Source: Phyllosticta citribraziliensis (lineage: Eukaryota). From it: DNA of 64,000 bases. Below are positions 1 to 12,431 of this stretch, piece after piece. How positions within the stretch are numbered: the first letter of the stretch is position 1; every line of letters begins with the position of its first letter. Location of the stretch: NCBI RefSeq assembly GCF_038025025.1, contig NW_027117339.1, positions 1 through 64,000 on the forward strand, in the 5' to 3' direction. The notes beneath the pieces were generated by a model, which made no database searches, was not told the DNA's origin, and saw nothing but the letters and a program-made list of their open reading frames with translations. The position numbers and the translations under genes were made by a program.

Positions 1-122
1 ACCCTAACCCTAACCCTAACCCTAACCCTAACCCTAACCCTAACCCTAACCCTAACCCTAACCCTAACCCTAACCCTAACCCTAACCCTAACCCTAACCC
101 TAACCCTAACCCTAACCCTAAC
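1..122. repeat. Telomeric repeat tract (CCCTAA)n / (TTAGGG)n, chromosome end
   Basis: About 20 perfect tandem CCCTAA units at the start of the window, then an abrupt switch to unique sequence. Confidence 0.99.
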
Positions 123-732
123 TCACCACGAATGTTGACCGACGCCTGCCTCCATGTCGGAGGCCATCTTTCTACTATCGGTCGCGTGCTGCCGAAATGG
201 TAGCCACCATGAGCGATGAGGTGATGAATGGAGCAATACTCATCAGAATCGTAGCATGGAGGCGGCGCCTGCGCCATTCAATGTTCGGCGAGGTCGTGCA
301 ACGTGTGCTTGACCCCAGCCTCCCGTGTTACTAACCTCAACTCATCTCCGCAATTTCAGCACCGTACTCTCCATGGTATCCGCCACACAATCGCGACTCC
401 CAAGCACAGAAAGACCGTCTACCCACTCGCATCACGCCGTCGTCGTCCAACCTACTTGCATCCGCGAGACCCAACAACCGACTCCCGAATCTCTCTCATC
501 ACACCTCTCGCCGTCGCTCTGTCGTTTTGCTCACTTGACGTGTTTGCTCCCACCCGCTCTATGTGTGTCCGCGATAGTTTTTTGTTCGTTTTCCCGCTCG
601 TTTCCCGCCATGGCCTTCGTCTCGCCGCGGCAGGGGGATATGTCATCGCGCCCGCCTTTCTTACCTTAGTCTGCTTTTTGCAGTGGGTACTACTGGTGTC
701 CTGGCTTCTCGGTGTCGGGAAAACTCCCTGTC

Positions 733-3700
733 CCAGCTTAGTGCTCGCCCTTGCCTTCCCCGCTGCGCGTCGCCGCTGCGCGGCGATTTGCGGTTGATTT
801 ATGTGCCTGGGGGATGAGATATGCTCGTCCCGGCTCACGGCTCGCGGCTCGCCTTGACCGGTTGACGGGACACTGACTGGTCATCATATGATTAATGGTC
901 CACAAATAACAATCGGAAATGGACGCAACTTAATCAGTGCCCAGCAACAAGCCAAAACCGCGTACCAGTGGGGATCAGGTTGAACCAGGCGAAGACCATG
1001 CAAGACGCCGCGATGGAAGTTGCACTTGGCCCAGAGCGACGAAGAGTCGCAGCTGCGGGTGATTGACTGCCTGAATGAATTCAAGAGAAGGGATCGAAAG
1101 TTCCCGGGCTCGCCTTGTGGCTATCAAGTAAGACTGGAACTCCACCTTCTAAGAGAGTATCGAGAATGGCGTAATTGGTGACGGGAATGGTGGCCAATTG
1201 GTAGATCTCTGATGGCTCAGAAACCCTCTTCTCGTAAAACCAAACGAGCGAGTGGGCCTCAAAACGTCTGCCAGGTTGGACTGCTTCCCGTACGGATTTC
1301 CCCAGTGCATTTAAGTTCCTGGGCCCTTTTTTGCTTCAACTTTCAGACGTGCAACTGCAGTGACCACTGGCGGGCCTTGCCGGGCTCCACGAAAAAGCAT
1401 GCGATCTTTGCGCATGTGGCAAAGCAAAAGAAAGATTTGCACTGCACATGACTCTCATGTAGGCATACCTTTCGTTCGGTCTCTCCGGGATCCATGAATA
1501 CCTAGACAATCAAACCGGAGGTTCTTCGACATCGCGACTCAATGCGAAACGAGACGAGCACCGTCTATCCCACTTACCCCTGTGGCTATCACGCACCGCT
1601 AGGTGCCACCCAAGGAGGTCAACGATGAGCCTCAGCCAAAGAGGAGGAAACTCAGTATCACTACAGGGAGCAAGATGTGCCACCGAAGGAGTTCAATTAA
1701 ACGCTCTTCATGTTTTCATTGTGGATTAAGTCGACGCTGCTGCCGGCGCTGAAACGGAAAGGCGACTTCTTACACGGCGAGTCTTGCGTGATCGATATTT
1801 CTGGCCCTGCTGACTTCAAATCTGGACAAAGCCTAAGCGCCGTCATCAATATAAGCTCAGCGGAAGCTCAGGACCACCAAAGAGAAAAGCGTTTAAGAAT
1901 CGCTCGGCCGGATGGGAGGTTGTACCATGATTTGAGATTGGCAAAAAATCAGTGCATCTCCCTCGTTATCCCGGGACGGGAATCCGGCGAAGCGAAATTC
2001 TGAAAACAGCATGCCCGCTGACGGCTTCCAGGAAACAGCTGGAAGGTGATGACTGCAGACTACCGAATTTTGCTGGCCTCTCAACTCAATCATGATGGAG
2101 TTTACAGGATAGCTTTCGTGCGAGTGGAGGATAGCCGAAGAAGCTTCTGTTGGCTTTTCAGGTAAAGTAAATATGGATGTATGATGAGACTTGCAGTAGA
2201 ACTGAACTCTAGGCACAAACGCCAGTTCTCTCCTTGTCCGGGATGAGCTGTCGAGTGGAACGGTGGGGCGGAGGTACCCAAGACGAGAAATTTGGGCGTC
2301 TCCATGTTGGAGTTGCCTGGACCCGAAAAGAAGAGGAAAGGCAAGAACAAAGTCCGGGCGGCTGCAGGAAATGCAAAAGGCGAGTAGAGTGCTCTGTCTT
2401 CGCCTGGCTCATCGCTCGCCTCCGCCGCCCCACCGCTTCGCGTCGGCTTGTCAGTTCGAGCCGGGCATGTGGCGTCTGTGTCCCTTGTGCCTACTGATTC
2501 CTGAACTGCGTGTATGCTGATCTCACGACTTTCCAGAAGTCATTCGATTTTGATACGGCTCGTAACTCGCCTGGCTTCCTCGGCCCCGCGTCAGTTTTGA
2601 CATTTGTTGTCGTATTGATCCAATGAGGCTACCTTCCATTGAAGGCTCTGCGTAGATATTTCGACGGGGAGGACAATGATCTGGGCTGATGTGCAGCTTG
2701 ATCTCACTCACGTGCTCGCAACACCAGGAGGCCCTCCACGAATCCAAATCCATTCCTGAGTTCCGGCGACAGAAGAGAGCCACAGCACCAAACTTTGAGT
2801 GGATAGTTCATATCGCAATTTGATGATTCAGATGTTGGGATGCCGCCGTACAGTTAACCATTCGTGTCTGATTCTCGGGCGAGTCCCTGACGGGAGGCGC
2901 CTGTGATGCTTAGCTAGCAGAAATGTCAGTCTTGCGTCTCCATGTCCTCCACCTACCATTTCGTGTTGATTGGGCCGAAAGGCACCCGTTTATGTGACTG
3001 GCTTGTGACTCCGCCTTCTCTCTGCCGTTGCGCGTCGACAACATCGGTCCTGTTCGTGAGCGGCAGTTGAAATAGACTGTGCACTCAGTCATCTCCTCGG
3101 ATCCTGCTCCGTGCCCGAGGTACCTTATTGGTTCAATGTCTGTTCGTGTATACGGTCCATGGCTCGCCTTGCATCTGCCGCTCCTCATAGGCTTGCCGTG
3201 AAGGTGTCTGCCTGTACCTGACATGTCAGGATTGAGATATTATCAATTCCGGTTGGTAACTCGCCTCGTCATCCACCGCATTGCGTCAGCGTGCCGCGAA
3301 ACCCTTTTGACCGCGCGGCTTCTGTTGGTTTGCCGCATTTTTGCTTCGCCGTCTGTCAGAGTCTCTGCACCTCTCTGACGATTGATGGCAGCCATGCCGT
3401 GAGGTGCTTGCTTCTCAAGCAGTGAATGCCTGGCGTTTCATCTGTCAGTTATCGGGACTGTACTCACATCAGATTCGTAGCTCGCCCGATCTCAGCCGCT
3501 CCACGTCGCTTGAAGTGATTTGTTTTGTATCCATGCCGGCTCGTGGCTCGCCTGTCCATCCATCGCTCCGCGCCGGGTTGCTGTTTTCTGATCCTGGTCT
3601 TTGGCCATCCCTGGCTCTATATCCCTCGTGCAATCCACTCGTAGCTCGCCTGACCATCCGTCGCTGCGCGTGAACTGCAACCCCTTTGCCGTTTGTCTGG

Positions 3701-4901
3701 GCTCGTTTCACCTCCCACGCTGCGTTTCTGTTTTGTTATGTTTCCCCTGGATGGCCATCACCGGCTTGCGCTCCTCGTGCAATCGGCTCGTGTCTCGCCT
3801 CCCTTTCCCGCCATTCCGTTTCGGCTTCCCGTTTGGTTACTCGTCTTTTCCAGATTCGTCTACCTTCCTCTGTGACCGGCTCGTATCTCGCCAGACAACC
3901 GCCGCTGCGTGTCGATATTCCGTTTGATATTTCGCAGTATACCTAGGGGCTGGTCTGACAGCGACGAGACGCGGGCGGGGGACGCCCAGCGTGTCCTGAA
4001 GAGCGCGGTCGGTCATTGCCATCTGCTGGTTCTAGACGCGAATGGCCTGAGTGACGATCTGGTTGAAGCATGTTCTTGCTGTAGTGGACGTTGTCATTGT
4101 GCCGCTGCTCTTCGACCGTTGAGCGCTCGGTCGAGCGTCGTCTCCAATGTTTTGCGTTACAGGGTTTGCTCGCTGCTACACATCGGCCTGCTTTATGGCG
4201 TTTGCCCTACCGTACATCACCCTTCCACCACTTCGCTGGCTACTGTCGTGTGTCGTATTTTCGGCCTCATCTTTTGTCTGCTCATCCCGTCTGCCTGGTC
4301 CATGAGTACGTCACTCACTCTTGACAGACTTGGATAGACCCTTCCCTGGCTTTGCTCTCTCCGCGTCTATTCTCGATCTCGTGCTGCGTTTGTTCCAGCA
4401 CCGGGCTGGCACCTCGCCTTCCCCTCCCGCGTCGACTTTACGTTTGGCATTGGCCTGTTGTTGATTGGTATCTGTATCTCCTCGCATGATCGGTTTTTGT
4501 CTCACCTCCTCACCCAGCACTACGCGTTGGCTTGTCTTTTGGTCTTGGTCTAGCGATCCAGCTCCGTGACCCGCATCCTGGCACTTAGTTCGCTTCTCCC
4601 GGTACCTTCTGTAGACTCGTTGACTTGTGTTGGTAGTCTGTACCTGGAATTCAGCGCCCGGCTCGTAGCTGGCCTCGGCCCGCGCCGCTGCGCATCGGCG
4701 CTGCGTTTGGTGCTCGACTGTTGGCTGTGTCGCTTCCCTTGGTCTGTACCTGGATGTCAGCATCTGGCTGCGACTCGCCTCCGCCACTACGAGCAGGCTT
4801 GTCGACGTATTGCTGGCCGTTGCGCCATGTCAGTCTGAAAAAAACATGGCAGAGTCCCGGCTCGCAGCTCGCCATCCCCTCCGTCGCTGCGCGTCGGCTT
4901 G
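733..4901 (+). repeat. Dispersed subtelomeric array of a degenerate ~44-bp bipartite motif (CCGGCTCGTRGCTCGCC-N6-7-CCGYCGCTGCGCGTCGGCTT), about 17 copies
   Basis: Copies found by eye at about 733, 838 (half), 2403, 2556, 2998, 3153, 3249, 3470, 3536, 3634, 3784, 3876, 4401, 4491, 4658, 4764 and 4857, all in the same orientation. Confidence 0.75.
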
Positions 4902-5655
4902 GCGTTGTGTTGATGGCCACCTGGTGGCCTCACCTTGACATTCCGGCTGGTCCCCACCAGTTTCAAACACCGTTTTTCCAGTCTTGGTAGCGTACTGCCG
5001 AAAATGGGTTGCATGTTGGAAGCTCGACGGTTGTCACGTCAAAGTCACCGTCACAATTGGCAGTGGAACTTCAGGGAGGACGGTCGTCAGATTTGGGTTC
5101 ATTGCCTGCTCAAGCCTTGACCTCGACCCTGCCCGCGTATGCCTGCTCACGACTCGTGTATTCCTCGTCCTCTGACCTTGCGCCGTGTTTAGCCATTTGT
5201 CTACGAGCCGAGGGATCGTGCGGTGTCCGTTTGGAGAGAGTCGTTGCGAGGAAGCCTTGTGCTCGTGGTCAGTACAAGCGATGAGCTTGTGCATGGAACA
5301 GAAGAGACTCATCAGCAGTCCGGCTCGCGAGTCGACCGTGGCGTGGCTAATGGAGGTGCTGAGGGACACAGCTGCCATCGCTCTTGCGCCATCCGCAGAG
5401 GAACGGCCGCTGGAAGTACTCGAGGTACACAGAGGTAGCGGATCCCGCCGAAAGACCCTGACTAACAGCGAGAGTCGATCCGGCGCGGTTACTGACCGGT
5501 AAGAATACGCGCCGCTGCTGTCATGCTACTGCAGGCTAGCTTGTCGGCCGAGTGCTCCCATTTCTTTGCGACGACCTCGCCTCGTTCGAATTTGCCCTTG
5601 ACGATGCCCTGTCCCGGCTCCCGGCTGTGCAGAAAGGTGGTTTGACCGCTGGCGC

Positions 5656-6747
5656 TTGAGACCACGCAGCGCGTGCACGCCAAAACTGCCCTCGGCGACG
5701 TCGCACTCGACGTTGTACGAAAAGGTGGTCGCAATGGGGAAGGAGGTGTCGTCATCTCAGGATGACAAGGGTGGTGACGTTGTCCGAAGCAGTTCTGCGC
5801 GCGTTGGACGCTCCCAGGCCGCGCAAAGGCTGGCCTGCACCGTGTCGTTGTCGGGCACTTGTTCGCCTGGTGGTGGCATGTGCGTCATTTCCTTCATTGT
5901 CCGAGGCGACGTAGCTTCCGTCATCAGCATTGTGGTCCGGGGACATCTTGCGGTTTGGTGGTGGCTTGGTTGTGCAATATATCGGTTGGTGATATTTTGG
6001 CGACAGAGGACCGCCGACTCAGCGAGAATCCGCAGGCCAGACCGGGAGCAGCCAACACCCGCAACTCTCCCCCTCAGTCATGACCTGTCCGCGGAGGAGC
6101 TGCCCCGCGTCGTGTCGTTGTCGGGCGCTGCGGTGACCACTGCGCGAACAGACCGTGACCGCGACGTTGGTGACCTCGAAGATGGTGAGGACTTTGAAGA
6201 AAGCGAAGAAGAGAATGCCGGGCTTTTTCGTCTGCTGACTATTCATGAGGAAGCCCCGTCGAATCTCGGGCAGCATAGAGCACAAGATGTTGACACCTGG
6301 TCTGAGGAAGCTTTGGTATTGGTGGGCTGGACGTTGGTTTTGCTCGACTTCTTCTTCCCACAAGCGCTGGACAAGGCGAATGAAGCTTGCCAGGTACTCG
6401 CGCAAATAGTCGATGTCCTGATGATCTTCAGCCAGCACCTGGGACGGCTGTTGGGAAGGCGTATCGTACAAACCTTGCACGTTCGGGGTTTCTGCTGACT
6501 CTCCACGAAACAGCCCGGCATTCTCTTCCCCGTTTTCCCTTCTTCAAAGATGGGCCCACGATGCGTCCAAATTGGTCAGCTTTGCATGCGGAGGCGGACC
6601 GATGACGGCTTCTACCTCCTACCAAGGACACAAGATGAAGATGAAGACTTCAACTGGAAGCAAGTTGGGTACTGGACCGCGGCCCAGTTTGAAGAAGATG
6701 AGGATGTAGAAGAGAGAGTGACTGCCACCAGCCGCCCCGGCCCATGA
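5656..6747 (+). other. Possible degenerate or lineage-specific coding remnant
   Basis: 280-codon ORF 5656-6498 with an acidic tract (DLEDGEDFEESEEE) and a short acidic ORF 6550-6747; no recognisable domain and no convincing gene model. Confidence 0.2.
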
Positions 6748-7102
6748 TTCTCACGTCACGCGTTTCGCGTCTCGCGTCGCGGTAGATCCTCGCTAGTACT
6801 TTTCGCCTAGGCCTATTCATACGGCGTCGCGGGCGACCCGGGCGCAAGGGTAACAAACAACGCGCATACGCTCTACCTAGATATCATCAAGGTCATCATT
6901 AGATCATCGGGTGTCTCTTTGCGACGGTACTTCCACCTTCCGTCCTGGTCAATCGTTTGCTTCTGTTTGAAGCGACGGTGCTTGTCTTTCGCCGCGCCCG
7001 CGAGCCGCACAACGTGCAAACGCCCTTCTTCCACCTCTACTCAACAACACAACACTCTACATCCACAACTCTCGCCCTCTCCGAACCGCTCTCATCACCG
7101 TT

Positions 7103-10100
7103 ATGGGCCGCACCTTCACGCAGCCGCCTGACTTGGATACACTCCGTCTCTACCGCAATGTCTCTTCGCGTCGCGTCGACCTCGTCGGCGATTACGCCGG
7201 TAGCGAGCCGTTTCTCGTCGCAGGCGACTCGCTGTTGCTCGAATGCTTCTCCGACGACCTACTAGATTTCCAAGGTTTTTATCTTCTTCCCAGCGTGACG
7301 CGCTGCGCTAATTCAATGCGCAGATGGCTACCAGATGCTCCACGCTGCCTGGCTGGTAGAGCGCTTCTTGAGCAACCTCAACCAGCGCAAATGCAATTTT
7401 GATCTTGTGTTCTTCGACGACCATGAGCACCTTTGTGTCCCCTCGCATACGACTGGTCCCGCGGCGGCGAAGTATCTTCTCGCTCGGGCTGTCATCTTGC
7501 GCCATCTGCAGGCCAACCTTGCCAGTGCATCTTCCGACATCAAGCTTCTGGTTTTTCCCTCAATCCATAGCTCTGAATTCAGTGCTGCGCTCACAAGCAG
7601 CGGCTACATGTTTGTCATGATGAATGATGGCGCTGCCGATGGATGTCTCTGCGAGCATCACGAGCGCGACAAGGCCATTCTTCGCACGGCCATCATCGAC
7701 ATCCTTGATCGAGGCTACAATGTAGCATTGACCAACGAGCTCGAGTGGAGAGACACGAAGGTCATCGCGTCCATCCTCGAAGGAAGCAAGAAGTCGGAAC
7801 GACACGCGCCAAAGCCCAACGGGGTTGCCGAAACGAAGAAACCCGACAGCTTGTTTGGTCAAGAGATGTACGAACTCTTCTCCAAGTACCCCAGCCTGGC
7901 CGCGCAGAGCCTCTCAGAGCGTCTGTACCTCGTCTCAGCCGCCCTCGTCACTATGATATCCACGGAAGACTGCACGAGCAGCCAAGCTGCAGCACTGCTC
8001 ACCCATTGCGCTCTCCAGCGTCAGCTGCCTCTTGCAACTCGCGCCGAAGCTACTTCCGCGAGCACCCAAGAAAGCCAACAATTTCTGCAACACTTTGCCA
8101 AAGTCTGCCGGGGCATCATGGAATCCTCGTCCTGGCAGAGCTTTGTCGGCGAAGCACAAACGTCGTCGACAGACATCGCCGATCTCGTCGACGGCAGGTT
8201 GTTCAACAACATCCTCACTGGCCACCTCACCGACATAAAACTCGACGAGGAATCTTCGGCCATCTTCCAGTCCATGGCAGACCTAATTTCATCGGCAGCG
8301 GGCCGACCAGCCGAACTTGAACACAGTCGGCCTTCATCGGAATCTGTCATCAACAAAGAGCAGCCTTTGCAATCTCATTACGAGCTTCTTCCTTTCTCCG
8401 ACCGAGTTTTCGACAAGCATCTAGCATCCACCAAATTGGATGTCGATGAACAAGCTATCCAGCCTCTCACGGCTGGGAGCTCCAGGGCTTTTCGAGAATT
8501 GACTCATTGGCACAACGCCAGTCGTCCTCTCGACAAGAGGACCGCCCGTGCTGCAAAAGATAAGCAAGCATTTTACGTCCGCCGCCGAGACCAGCGCTTC
8601 ATGGCCGAGATGATGGCTTACGCCGCCAGTCTCACCAACGCCGTCGGTAAGGTTCTTGAGCCTGAGACGATCCTTCAGACTGCAAAGTCGAATGCCTCCA
8701 ATCCAACCAAGGGAAAGCAGCAGCCATCGCAGACTGGCAAGACCGGGGGTGGCAAAAGCAAGCAGCCGAGCAAAAAGCAGGCCATCCTGGACCAACGTGC
8801 TGTTGAAAAGAAACAGAAGGACGTCCAAAGCGCTTCGAAAACCTTGAGCTCGTGGCACTCTGTGTGCAAGGAAATCCAGAAGGCGCAGCAGCCCGCGGAT
8901 CGCTACGCCAAGGCTCTTCGCTACCTCAATTCCCTGCCCAGTTCTAAGCAAGAGGTCGTGGGGACAGAAGTGGAGTTCTATGCATTGAATTGCCTCCTCG
9001 AACTCTGGACCTCTTCCATCGCGGATAGTTCCAAAGCTCCCAACTACCAACTCGCTGCCAGGATCTGGGAGTCCGTCGCTCGACTGAACAATGCACCCGA
9101 CCTCACGAAGTCCATGGCCACGAGGCTGCAGAAGATTGTTGATGCTTTGGGTCTGTCGTTCGTCATTTCGGAACCGAGCGCTGAAGATCGCAAGCTTCCG
9201 TACGAGTTTGCCCTGCGCCCTGGCAAGGCCAATGCTCTAAGGATACCCCGTCCGTCGAAAGAATTCCAGCTTCTTCACTGCGGCCCTTACTTTGATCGCA
9301 AGATGGATTCTGCTGTCGACGAGCGCGTTCCCTTCCAGCCGGACGGCTGGCAGCGCAAGGTCCTGGATGTCATCGACGCAGAGAAGAGTCTCTTCGTTGT
9401 CGCTCCGACAAGTGCTGGTAAAACCTTCATTTCTTTTTACGCCATGAAGAAGGTTCTCGAGGGCTCCGATGATAGCGTCATCGTATACGTAGCACCAACC
9501 AAAGCCCTCGTCAACCAGATCGCCGCCGAGATCCAAGCGCGCTTCTCAAAGTCTTACAAGCACGCAGGCAAGTCCGTCTGGGGAATCCACACTCGCGATT
9601 ATCGTGTGAACAATGCCACCGGATGTCAAGTCCTTGTTACGGTTCCGCACATCCTCCAGATCATGCTTCTGGCGCCTGCCCACGCGGATTCCTGGTCTGC
9701 TCGTGTCAAGCGCATCATCTTCGACGAGGTCCACTGTATCAGCCAGACAGATGAGGGCATCATCTGGGAGCAACTGCTTCTGCTTGCCCCATGTCCGATC
9801 ATTGCGTTGTCCGCAACTGTTGGAAATCCCGAAGGTTTCCACGGCTGGTTGGCTTCGGCGCAAAAGGCCATCGGAAACGATCTCGTCATGGTGCATCACC
9901 CCCACCGGTACTCGGACCTCCGGAAGTTTGTGTACTTGAGCCCTGAAAACTTCGACTTCGCTGGGCTTCCAAAAGAGCCTGTGATCGCACGGGTCGGCTT
10001 GGACGAGAGTAGAGATTTCAAGTTCGTCCATCCTGTTGCCGCTTTGCTCAATAGGTCGCGTGGAGTTCCCATGGACTTCGCAATGGAAGCTCGTGACTGC

Positions 10101-12431
10101 TTTACGCTTTGGCAGGTCATGGAATCCCGTCAGACCGAAAGCCACAGAGTTCCAGCATCGCTGAACCCTGAGAAGGCTTTGCCTGCTGTCATCACCCAAA
10201 CCGACACCATCAAGTGGTTTCAGAGCCTGAAGCAGCTCCTCGTTGAATGGATGGCCGACCAGCATTCTCCGTTTGACAAGGTCGTCCAGGATCTCGGTGG
10301 AGACTTGTACAAGTTCGAGGCAGAGCACGACACAGACCTCGAGCCGCAAAAAATGATCGACACGGTGCTTCCCCTTCTCTACAACTTGCATGAACAAGCC
10401 GCCCTGCCCGCTATTCTTTTCAATTTCGATCGGTCCATGTGCGAAGAAATTTGTAGAACCGTGATGGAACAGTTGAAGCAAGCGGAACAGAAGTGGAAAG
10501 AGACGTCTCCGGTGTGGGCGAAAAAGATGGAGTCCTGGGAGACGTGGAAGAAAAGTCGGAAGGGCATGTCAAAGAAGAAAGCGTCGACGAAGACCTCAGC
10601 TGCGCCTGAAGACGGCATGGGCAAAGCCGACCTGGAAAGAGACGCTGCGTCCGCCGACGCGGACTCCTGGGAGACATTCGATCCCAACGCCCCTCTTGAC
10701 GGCTTCCATTTCCTCGAGCGCACCAAGCTGCAGAAGTCTGAGCTTGAAGCGTATGCTAGAGAGCTTCGCTACCGCGGCGTTCCTGACGATCTGATCGAGG
10801 CCCTTTCTCGAGGCATCGGAGTTCACCACGCTGGTATGAACAGGAAATACCGCCATGTTGTCGAAATCCTCTTCAGAAAAGGCTTGCTGCGGGTCGTCAT
10901 CGCAACTGGCACTCTGGCCCTGGGTATCAACATGCCTTGCAAGACGGTGGCGTTCTGCGGCGATTCTGTTTTTCTGACGGCTCTCAACTTCCGTCAAGCA
11001 GCAGGTCGCGCTGGTCGCAGAGGCTTCGACGTTCTCGGCAACGTTGTGTTTCACGGAATCCCTGTCTCCAAGGTTTGCCGCCTTCTCAGTTCTCGCTTGC
11101 CCGAAATCAACGGGCATTTCCCGATCACGACAACCTTGGTTCTCAGGCTCTGCACCCTGCTTTCGGAATCCAAGCACTCAGACCACGCCGTTCGTTCAGT
11201 CGATGCTCTACTGTCCCAGCCTCGTCTTTACCTCGGCGGAGACGAGAACCGCACGTCTGTGCTTCACCATCTTCGCTTCTCTCTCGAGTACCTGCGCAGG
11301 CAGTGTCTGCTTGACCAAAATGGAAATCCGCTCAACTTTGCGGGATGTGTGTCGCATCTGTACTACACAGAGCCATCCAACATGGCCTTCCACGCTCTTC
11401 TCAAGGAGGGCTACTTCCACAAACTGTGCGCTGGTATACGCAAGAACCCAGAGATGACTGAGAGGGTCACCCGAACGCTCATGCTTGTTCTCTCGCACAT
11501 TTTCGGTCGTCAATTCCTCCCTCAAGCGACAAAGGAATCTGTGGAGATCATCAAAAACTCCCCATCAAATGTCATCTTGCCGCCCCTTCCCGAAGACGCC
11601 GAAAATATCCTCCACCAGCACAACGAGGAAGTCCTCGGACTTTCCAGTTCCTACGTGCGCAGCTTTGTCTCCAACCATGTCACCGACCCGGACTGCTACC
11701 TTCCCCTGACAGGCACCGGATTCGGCAACCCCGACAACAATGCAGGTGCTACTCCCCACGGAAAAGCTCCCACTACAGTCCGCTCCAGCTTCGTTGCCCT
11801 CTCCGGTCACAGGGACGACACCTTCACCTCTGTCAATGAGCTTTGCCATACTGTCCGCGCTGGAGTATTCCTTGAGGAGGCCGTGATCCCGTATCTACCA
11901 ATCGTGGCCGAGCTGCCGCTCAACGCATACCTCCTCGACTTTTTCAAGCACGGAGACGTTACTGCGTTGGCCAACGCAAACAACATCAAGAAGGGTGAGG
12001 TCTGGTTCCTCTTGAACGACTTCAGCATGATACTGGCAACCATTACTGCGAGCTTGACAAATTTCGTCAAGGGGACTGATGCATCTGAGGATGATGACAT
12101 GTTGGTGGTAGGAGATGGTGATGCGCACGAGGGGGAAGTCGAGGATCAGCTTGGCGAGGAGGCTGCGCCGGTGGAGACGACGAAGAAGCCTTTGCCGGTG
12201 CGCGAGAAGAGCAAGAAGAAGATCATGCAGGAGAGTTGGGATGACGAAGGGGACGACGACGGCGATGCCGGCGCAGGCGACGTCAATGGCGAGACGAACG
12301 GACAGGCTGACGACGGTATGAGTATGCCTGCATGGGAGGACGACGGCGAAGGCAACTTGCTTGATGTGCTGTTCGCCTTCAAGAAGCTTGCGGAGGAGTT
12401 CAACCTGAAATTCAAGGCCATGTGGGCTTAG
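7103..12431 (+). CDS. DDX60-like Ski2-family DExD/H-box RNA helicase (~1760 aa); intron 7275-7323
   Basis: Motif I APTSAGKT, motif II DEVH, motif III SAT, motif VI QAAGRAGRRG. N-terminal RRVDLVGDYAG...GDSLL segment typical of fungal DDX60-like proteins. A 49-nt GT..AG intron with a GCTAAT branch site joins ORF 7103 to ORF 7335 in frame. Confidence 0.9.

Follow-up and report, generated by a model that had tools for sequence, protein, structure and literature searches.

A bipartite repeat array within a spliced, apparently non-coding RNA directed toward a telomere of Phyllosticta citribraziliensis

The DNA considered here, the first 64,000 nucleotides (nt) of contig NW_027117339.1 of Phyllosticta citribraziliensis (assembly GCF_038025025.1, forward strand; hereafter the window), corresponds to the left end of contig C2 in a genome of 31.35 Mb and 22 contigs. 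It opens with a telomere tract that switches abruptly to unique sequence, a junction without counterpart at the other contig ends, and the first real gene counted from the telomere encodes a DDX60-like DEAD/DEAH helicase. Between the two lies an array of a degenerate bipartite motif, which appears to belong to a spliced RNA transcribed toward the telomere. The features that frame it are listed below, copies being named by their first position.

1-122, no strand assigned: telomere tract, 20.3 copies of a 6-nt repeat.
593-853, minus strand: outlying group, with weak copy 593, full copy 733-776 and a left half alone at 837-853.
880-2390, no strand assigned: motif-free segment, without the strand skew of the array, which is present on both sides.
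2404-4900, minus strand: main array, 13 full and 2 partial copies.
2404-2449, 2555-2597, 2998-3041, 3152-3194, 3249-3292, 3470-3512 and 3536-3579, minus strand: full copies of the main array, first part.
3634-3677, 3783-3827, 3876-3918, 4490-4533, 4658-4701 and 4857-4900, minus strand: full copies of the main array, second part.
4402-4443 and 4763-4804, minus strand: partial copies of the main array.
7103-12431, plus strand: DDX60-like DEAD/DEAH helicase gene, single copy, divergent from the array RNA.

The motif is real: 14 full and three to four partial copies between 593 and 4900 stand far above shuffled sequence. The full copies, recovered with a split weight matrix, have leave-one-out scores of 15.6-45.4 bits, the lowest being that of copy 733, which has diverged furthest; among 300 shuffles of 121-5000 that kept dinucleotide composition, the top score is 17.3 bits and 15 bits or more is reached once. 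Outside the array, scores peak at 6.9 on the plus strand of 5001-64000, and the minus strand over its full length does not exceed 13.2. Partial copies also emerge from a covariance model built on sequence alone: 4403 (E 0.0011), 835 (left half only, E 0.022) and the weaker 591 (E 0.28) and 4774 (E 0.3). All copies share one orientation; the linker between the halves measures 7 nt in 8/14 copies, 6 nt in 4/14 and 8 or 9 nt in one each, and start-to-start distances are 88-105 in 7 of the 16 intervals. A first-pass annotation, made by a model from the letters alone, had described most of this correctly: its five example copies are present where it placed them, its "about 17" copies is a fair count when partial copies are included, the co-orientation, the linker of mostly 6-7 nt (12/14 copies), the frequent spacing of ~90-106 bp and the absence of a full copy past 5 kb all hold, and the shuffle comparison that it proposed favours the motif.

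Copies are on average 0.64 identical over the motif, against 0.53 when shuffled. The halves align without gaps and length change is mostly confined to the linker, which is altered in 6/14 copies. Together the halves form an imperfect 12-bp inverted repeat, in which 68% of cells pair versus 32-46% when one half is slid along the other, and the best-kept columns of the motif fall outside it. The strand that would be RNA is purine- and A-rich, a strand-specific skew.

Transcription of the array is indicated by contigs of X1 and X2, two runs from the same organism and from two studies (P1 and P2), which we take to be RNA. Four joints occur in both: 2569>2711, 2899>2956, 3209>3263 and 5257>5312. 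Read with the branch consensus and at equivalent cut points, they are minus-strand GT-AG, GT-AG, GC-AG and AT-AC introns, each with a CTGAC branch word, while contigs of the DNA-type runs X3 and X4 are unbroken through three of the four (X4, 2548-2758; X3, 2874-3066 and 5111-5439). Four precise intron losses from DNA are far less likely than splicing, and thus the region is transcribed toward the telomere. The transcribed features, with two intron-like remnants taken up further below, are as follows.

1405-5600, minus strand: stretch under spliced contigs, those of X1 extending over 1405-4456 and from 4535 to 5600 or beyond.
2571-2711, minus strand: GT-AG intron of 141 nt, in spliced and retained forms (unspliced also in X1).
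2901-2956, minus strand: GT-AG intron of 56 nt, sitting in a spacer.
3212-3264, minus strand: GC-AG intron of 53 nt, whose donor is the AG/GCGAGT junction of copy 3249.
5259-5312, minus strand: AT-AC intron of 54 nt, with donor ATGAGT and a CTGAC branch word, upstream of the array.
4638-4673, minus strand: intron-like remnant behind copy 4658, 36 nt long and sharing homology with the last part of intron 3212-3264, unspliced in the listed contigs.
4744-4778, minus strand: intron-like remnant of 35 nt behind partial copy 4763, with the same homologous end, unspliced in the listed contigs.

These data support the view that the array is carried by a spliced RNA that runs toward the telomere, is apparently non-coding and diverges from the DDX60-like helicase gene; such a transcript was one of the possibilities offered by the first-pass annotation, whose interpretation as a whole is partly supported. 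The strand is read from the splice signals, the contigs giving neither RNA ends nor levels; in particular, the X1 contig depth of 236-548 over the array and ~1200 above 5312 says nothing about expression or about where the RNA ends. Judging from record lengths, the upstream contigs would reach ~6465-6498 if there is no further intron. No run covers 123-854, the stretch that holds copies 593-853. Eleven of the 13 full main-array copies overlap no intron, and for copy 4490 no contig cover is listed. That copy has a canonical GT donor followed by a 51-nt intron-like stretch (4455-4505), for which no joint and no cover are listed; its acceptor coincides with the end of the long X1 contig at 4456. 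The AT-AC reading of 5259-5312 is less firm, since extra letters between the two sides of the joint are possible. As an aside, this intron might yield a cleaved 5' product, by analogy with the A-first donor outlined for Aspergillus telomerase RNA (PMC4299874).

The RNA is apparently non-coding, with short translated frames possible. Mismatches between copies are spread evenly over codon phases (3.0, 2.85 and 2.91; p = 0.95), linkers of 6, 7, 8 and 9 nt break the reading frame, and the longest spliced frame over the array spans 172 amino acids; coding scores over 121-5370 are mostly negative, with a maximum of 6.3, compared with 5.3-16.7 for the helicase. Nine upstream frames have no match in Pfam; for the longest frame of the array, longer proteins yield no homologue and the atlas nothing above noise. 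A decayed repeat-protein gene, one of the first-pass suggestions, is rejected: there is no codon-phase bias, indels do not keep frame and no homologue is found. In the broader form, in which the array might instead be the greatly extended 3' untranslated region of a small protein-coding gene at 5300-6575, a coding origin could draw on the purine-rich sense strand, the frames of up to 172 amino acids and two automatic gene models, P0122 (minus strand, at ~6520) and P0121 (plus strand); we nevertheless hold it to be very unlikely, as the codon-phase result, the frame-breaking linkers and the lack of any Pfam, homologue or atlas match speak against it, and the two models overlap on opposite strands without a credible outside relative. 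Their one other match (E 1e-4) is to a repetitive protein over 30 residues. Open frames do overlap on both strands at 5602-6575, where separate hypothetical genes on opposite strands are annotated under the P. citribraziliensis label, and no homologue of these frames is found outside that label. The same region carries an inverted repeat (6199-6231 and 6505-6537; 33 nt, 88% complementary, 273 nt apart) that would form a long stem on either strand and adjoins the likely 5' region of the array RNA.

A structured RNA fares no better. No consensus fold of the motif is found, covariation lies within the shuffle range (143-331 of 500 shuffles as high), which disposes of the covariation signal that the first-pass annotation had thought worth looking for, and folding z-scores stay close to zero whichever strand is folded (means +0.31 and +0.09); Rfam has no match in 1-8000 at E <= 1. 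A hairpin or structured RNA motif is thus rejected, with neither a fold nor covariation beyond shuffles. Telomerase RNA is likewise rejected: neither strand of 123-7300 holds a telomere-repeat match of at least 7 nt that could serve as template, and no Sm-like word precedes the donor.

The motif itself resembles a splice junction. On the RNA strand each unit reads right half, linker, then G/GCGAG, and nowhere else in the motif do the 14 copies vary so little over a run, each of these six core columns having 0-2 mismatches; AG stands before the junction in 13 of the 17 full and partial copies taken together, and GCGAG after it in 14. Two junctions are used: that of copy 3249 as GC donor, and that of copy 2555, AG/GCGAG, as acceptor of intron 2571-2711, whose branch word lies in the right half of the same copy. 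Moreover, the 64-kb minus strand contains three instances of a 17-18-nt branch-and-acceptor piece, all of them behind a motif junction: at the end of the spliced intron 3212-3264 and behind copies 4658 and 4763, the two remnants listed above. Behind copies 3470 and 4857, a branch word and YAG follow at 56 and 60 nt. The recurrence of the branch-and-acceptor piece behind junctions makes it most likely that the ancestral unit was an exon end plus a short intron, duplicated locally, and we consider this origin probable. Fungal same-gene-duplication introns (PMC3609843) and intron gain by tandem duplication (PMC4974935) offer precedents. As those sources outline the process, the likeness lies in an exon-plus-intron unit duplicated within a transcript, with copies inheriting the splice signals; the difference is that same-gene-duplication introns are near-identical, spliced and found in annotated genes, whereas here the copies are ~64% alike, mostly unspliced and in a non-coding host. 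The shared intron end is 17-18 nt long in three units, one of them spliced, so that the array falls short of that class and resembles an old, decayed case.

Recursive (ratchet) sites are YAG acceptors fused to a donor and used stepwise inside a long intron. They are rejected here, with YAG at only 3/17 junctions and most copies exonic, and none of the four listed joints has a copy acting as both acceptor and donor, contigs being prone to drop rare forms. Pairing of the motif junctions with the 5' end of the genome's own U1 averages 6.0 against a background of 3.6, the junction of partial copy 4763 being left out of the mean. None of the four U1-like genes in the genome is a variant U1 whose 5' end matches the GC donor. 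Two of these genes have the usual 5' end, one is altered at position 2 and one has its 5' end replaced; the last (C11:1214508-1214666, minus strand) keeps loop II, the Sm word and a shared downstream box, and is a candidate for a variant U1 of other donor specificity, or else a pseudogene.

How the array grew can be read in part from its spacers. These are 23-483 nt long, and against base shuffles 7 of their 105 pairings reach p <= 0.01 in alignment, where about one is expected; partly homologous spacers indicate that the array arose by local duplication and that, as judged from the sequence, spacers are not unique acquisitions. The description of the spacers as non-repetitive therefore stands for the average 40-nt flank, which is at background identity (0.48-0.49 versus 0.48 shuffled), and fails for the seven homologous pairs. 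A CRISPR-like or cassette repeat-spacer array is rejected on the spacer lengths and the homologous pairs. Transitions lead among the substitutions between copies, with no asymmetry (C>T 27, G>A 26), and CpG columns show no excess of mutation. Column conservation is uneven (p = 0.006), with a split-half correlation of 0.29 versus 0.0 under uniform decay. X3 differs at two positions (3967 and 4011), both in spacer and each in one low-depth contig, too few for a test of selection.

The array could, on this evidence, be a neutral relic, left when an exon-intron unit of a transcribed locus was locally duplicated in tandem long ago, with no function today and the motif as its best-surviving part. 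Such a relic would be expected to show what the substitution pattern shows, copies only ~64% alike, partly homologous spacers and a restriction to one species within the collections searched, and in one pair of copies, 3634 and 3783, the flanks (0.65) are indeed as alike as the motif (0.58). Set against this are the average flanks at shuffle level with the motif well above, the uneven columns and their split-half correlation, the length changes in 6/14 linkers beside gapless halves, and CpG columns that are not more mutated than others. We regard the neutral relic as unlikely, while taking it to be a serious contender.

The motif-free segment 880-2390 bears on the history as well. Within it, 1690-1866 and 1859-2144 resemble dispersed relics on contigs C7 and C15 (68-79% identity), in which the motif is absent; the segment is probably an insertion that split the array and cut off copies 593-853. 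The dispersed relic, of undefined kind, is low in copy (window 1690-2144; L145:6090-6448; L146:5443-5824), and both X1 and X2 contain a 255-nt contig that corresponds to its C15 copy.

The array is confined to this locus. In the whole genome, two full-motif patterns match the array only (4 and 3 matches; reversed controls 0), while half-site and core patterns give 37 and 58 matches; 7 and 8 of these are inside the array, and the scattered remainder of 30 and 50 compares with 25 and 45 in reversed controls; these patterns allowed 1-2 mismatches, so that more diverged arrays were beyond their reach. Forty-one stretches at other contig ends, 316 kb in total and including 15 that carry a telomere tract, hold no cluster and no blastn match, the sole motif score of note being an isolated position of 17.3 bits. 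Many other contig ends are AT-rich, and GC-rich older copies could have been erased there. With no second array in the pattern searches or in those 41 stretches, we reject a shared subtelomeric repeat family, and with it the earlier suggestion of a telomere-associated element. Viral contigs, metagenome contigs (exact pattern) and plasmids give 0 matches, a weak negative in collections with few or no Phyllosticta. Eighty fungal helicase loci from metagenomes (1.05 Mb, best segments 37-81% identical) hold no array and one isolated match of 20.8 bits; they have no similarity to 121-7150 or to the four downstream frames either, which makes synteny unusable. As far as could be searched, among distant fungal loci, metagenomes, viruses and plasmids, the array is species-restricted.

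Two further explanations can be weighed. The first is a lost mobile element, of which the copies would be subterminal or internal repeats, or else a multiplied introner. Its location at a chromosome end and the nearby segment sharing relics with two other loci would suit it, yet the genome has no second array, no transposase or reverse transcriptase match is found, the dispersed relics do not carry the motif, and there is no sign of repeat-induced mutation here, though many other ends are AT-rich. We judge this explanation extremely unlikely; the first-pass idea of subterminal repeats loses its footing, there being no second copy and no transposase found, and an introner-like element, which would have a stable structure and many copies spread over unrelated genes, is rejected on the single locus and the near-zero folding z-scores. 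The second explanation places function in the DNA: the array might be a homotypic cluster of sites for a dimeric factor, acting as an enhancer, a silencer or a boundary between telomere and helicase, the RNA and splice sites being incidental. Two conserved halves with a variable 6-9-nt linker, the 12-bp imperfect inverted repeat between them and a position between the telomere and the first real gene all fit such a cluster, and overlap with splice sites is not improbable by chance. But sites of this kind would be expected at the 15 other telomere-bearing stretches and in the rest of the genome, where the array is absent; the best-kept columns lie outside the inverted repeat, and a homologous intron end recurs in three units. 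From the sequence we would call this possibility unlikely, if worth keeping in view.

By analogy with known repeat-bearing RNAs, we tentatively favour a different reading, with less than even confidence: the array could be the repeat domain of a spliced non-coding RNA, its 37-nt halves being kept as multivalent landing sites for a protein or for U1. A polymerase II non-coding transcript would run toward the telomere, away from the DDX60-like helicase gene, and would have grown by local tandem and segmental duplication of a ~100-nt unit, a step that the spacer and intron-end homologies support well. As read on the RNA strand, this unit would combine an exon end, formed by the right half and linker, with a short intron whose weak GC donor lies in the left half. 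Splicing would since have been lost from most units, their introns having shrunk or decayed, which would leave 11/13 full main-array copies whole in the spliced RNA. As the spacers drifted the halves may have been kept, each copy perhaps offering a landing site for an RNA-binding protein or for the U1 small nuclear ribonucleoprotein (snRNP) and a partner, and the RNA might then act as a multivalent scaffold or sponge, probably nuclear, in the manner of Xist A-repeats or Firre repeats. The uneven columns, the linker-confined length change and the uneroded CpG point to constraint on the halves, a signal inflated by the picking of the motif and by shared ancestry.

Several observations weigh against this reading: (i), the records of X1 and X2 do not state that they are RNA, both are available as contigs only, and no listed piece bridges 4457-4534; (ii), U1-likeness is near chance, a pairing score of 6 being reached by 5.8% of background positions and by 2 of 34 consensus registers; (iii), of 43 candidate donors 7 are motif junctions, as is 1 of the 10 acceptors backed by a branch word, so that coincidence with a used donor or acceptor is not rare (~0.4 and ~0.3, respectively); (iv), conservation runs 10 nt past the U1 register and over the 20-nt second half; (v), the contrast between motif and flanks is partly built in through motif picking, and shared ancestry of the copies could produce uneven columns; (vi), no relative is found outside the species (viral, metagenome and 80 helicase loci), so that purifying selection is putative; and (vii), the imperfect 12-bp inverted repeat suits a DNA-binding dimer equally well.

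A bolder variant would have the array selected as a set of decoy splice junctions (branch-like word, AG and weak GC donor) that load U1 snRNP, along with factors associated with it, without splicing. Such decoys might either titrate the spliceosome or tether the RNA to the chromosome end, tuning the DDX60-like helicase, and the upstream AT-AC intron might gate the share of the array joined to the 5' exon; to this set of proposals, taken jointly, we give little credence.

The favoured reading, a repeat domain of a spliced non-coding RNA, has counterparts in mammals. Xist with its A-repeat, Firre with its repeating RNA domain (RRD; 8-16 copies of 156 bp) and NORAD are presented in PMC6316617 as long non-coding RNAs (lncRNAs) functionalised by local repeats. 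The array RNA is like them a spliced non-coding RNA with many degenerate motif copies in the locus; it differs in being fungal and so far species-restricted, in a motif that lies across a splice junction and has no hairpin, and in a function that is putative here. Mammalian lncRNAs also provide U1-motif-driven chromatin retention (outlined in 10.1101/310433) and an enrichment in GC-AG introns (outlined in PMC7242645). In the array RNA, as in those accounts, donor-like motifs remain in the mature RNA and a GC-AG intron occurs in a non-coding gene, whereas the array sites are near-cognate GC donors within a longer repeat, with U1 binding putative. Transcription from the subtelomere toward the telomere recalls telomeric repeat-containing RNA (TERRA) as portrayed in PMC12566771, from which the array RNA departs by its occurrence at one end only, its several introns and its being seen under spliced contigs down to 1405, short of the telomere repeat. 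Finally, the outline of Aspergillus telomerase RNA in PMC4299874 includes an intron with an AU donor and an A-first donor that blocks the second splicing step; the A-first intron in a fungal non-coding RNA is shared, and the array RNA differs in lacking a template of at least 7 nt and an Sm-like word before the donor, and in an intron removed via an AC end. Searches of open-access literature text gave no description of this locus or of a fungal lncRNA with splice-junction repeats.

If the motif is functional, the array would be a case of a filamentous-fungal lncRNA gaining function by local repeat expansion, a route for which the case has so far come chiefly from mammals, and its repeated unit would itself be a splice junction; if it is neutral, it is a curiosity of one species. 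The array RNA also records several stages in the gain and loss of introns through tandem duplication, with one unit spliced, two shrunk to 35-36 nt and others decayed, and, with two of its four introns non-canonical, it is a compact test object for weak-donor use in fungi.

The closest named relatives of the helicase are Phyllosticta proteins, with 95% identity to a protein of Phyllosticta citrichinensis. Two distinct DDX60-like proteins carry the P. capitalensis label (68% and 60% identity to the query), compared with one copy in the present genome. Elsewhere in the assembly, the start of C5 and the end of C13 have long repeated sequence in common (21 kb of summed alignments, in 8-kb stretches).

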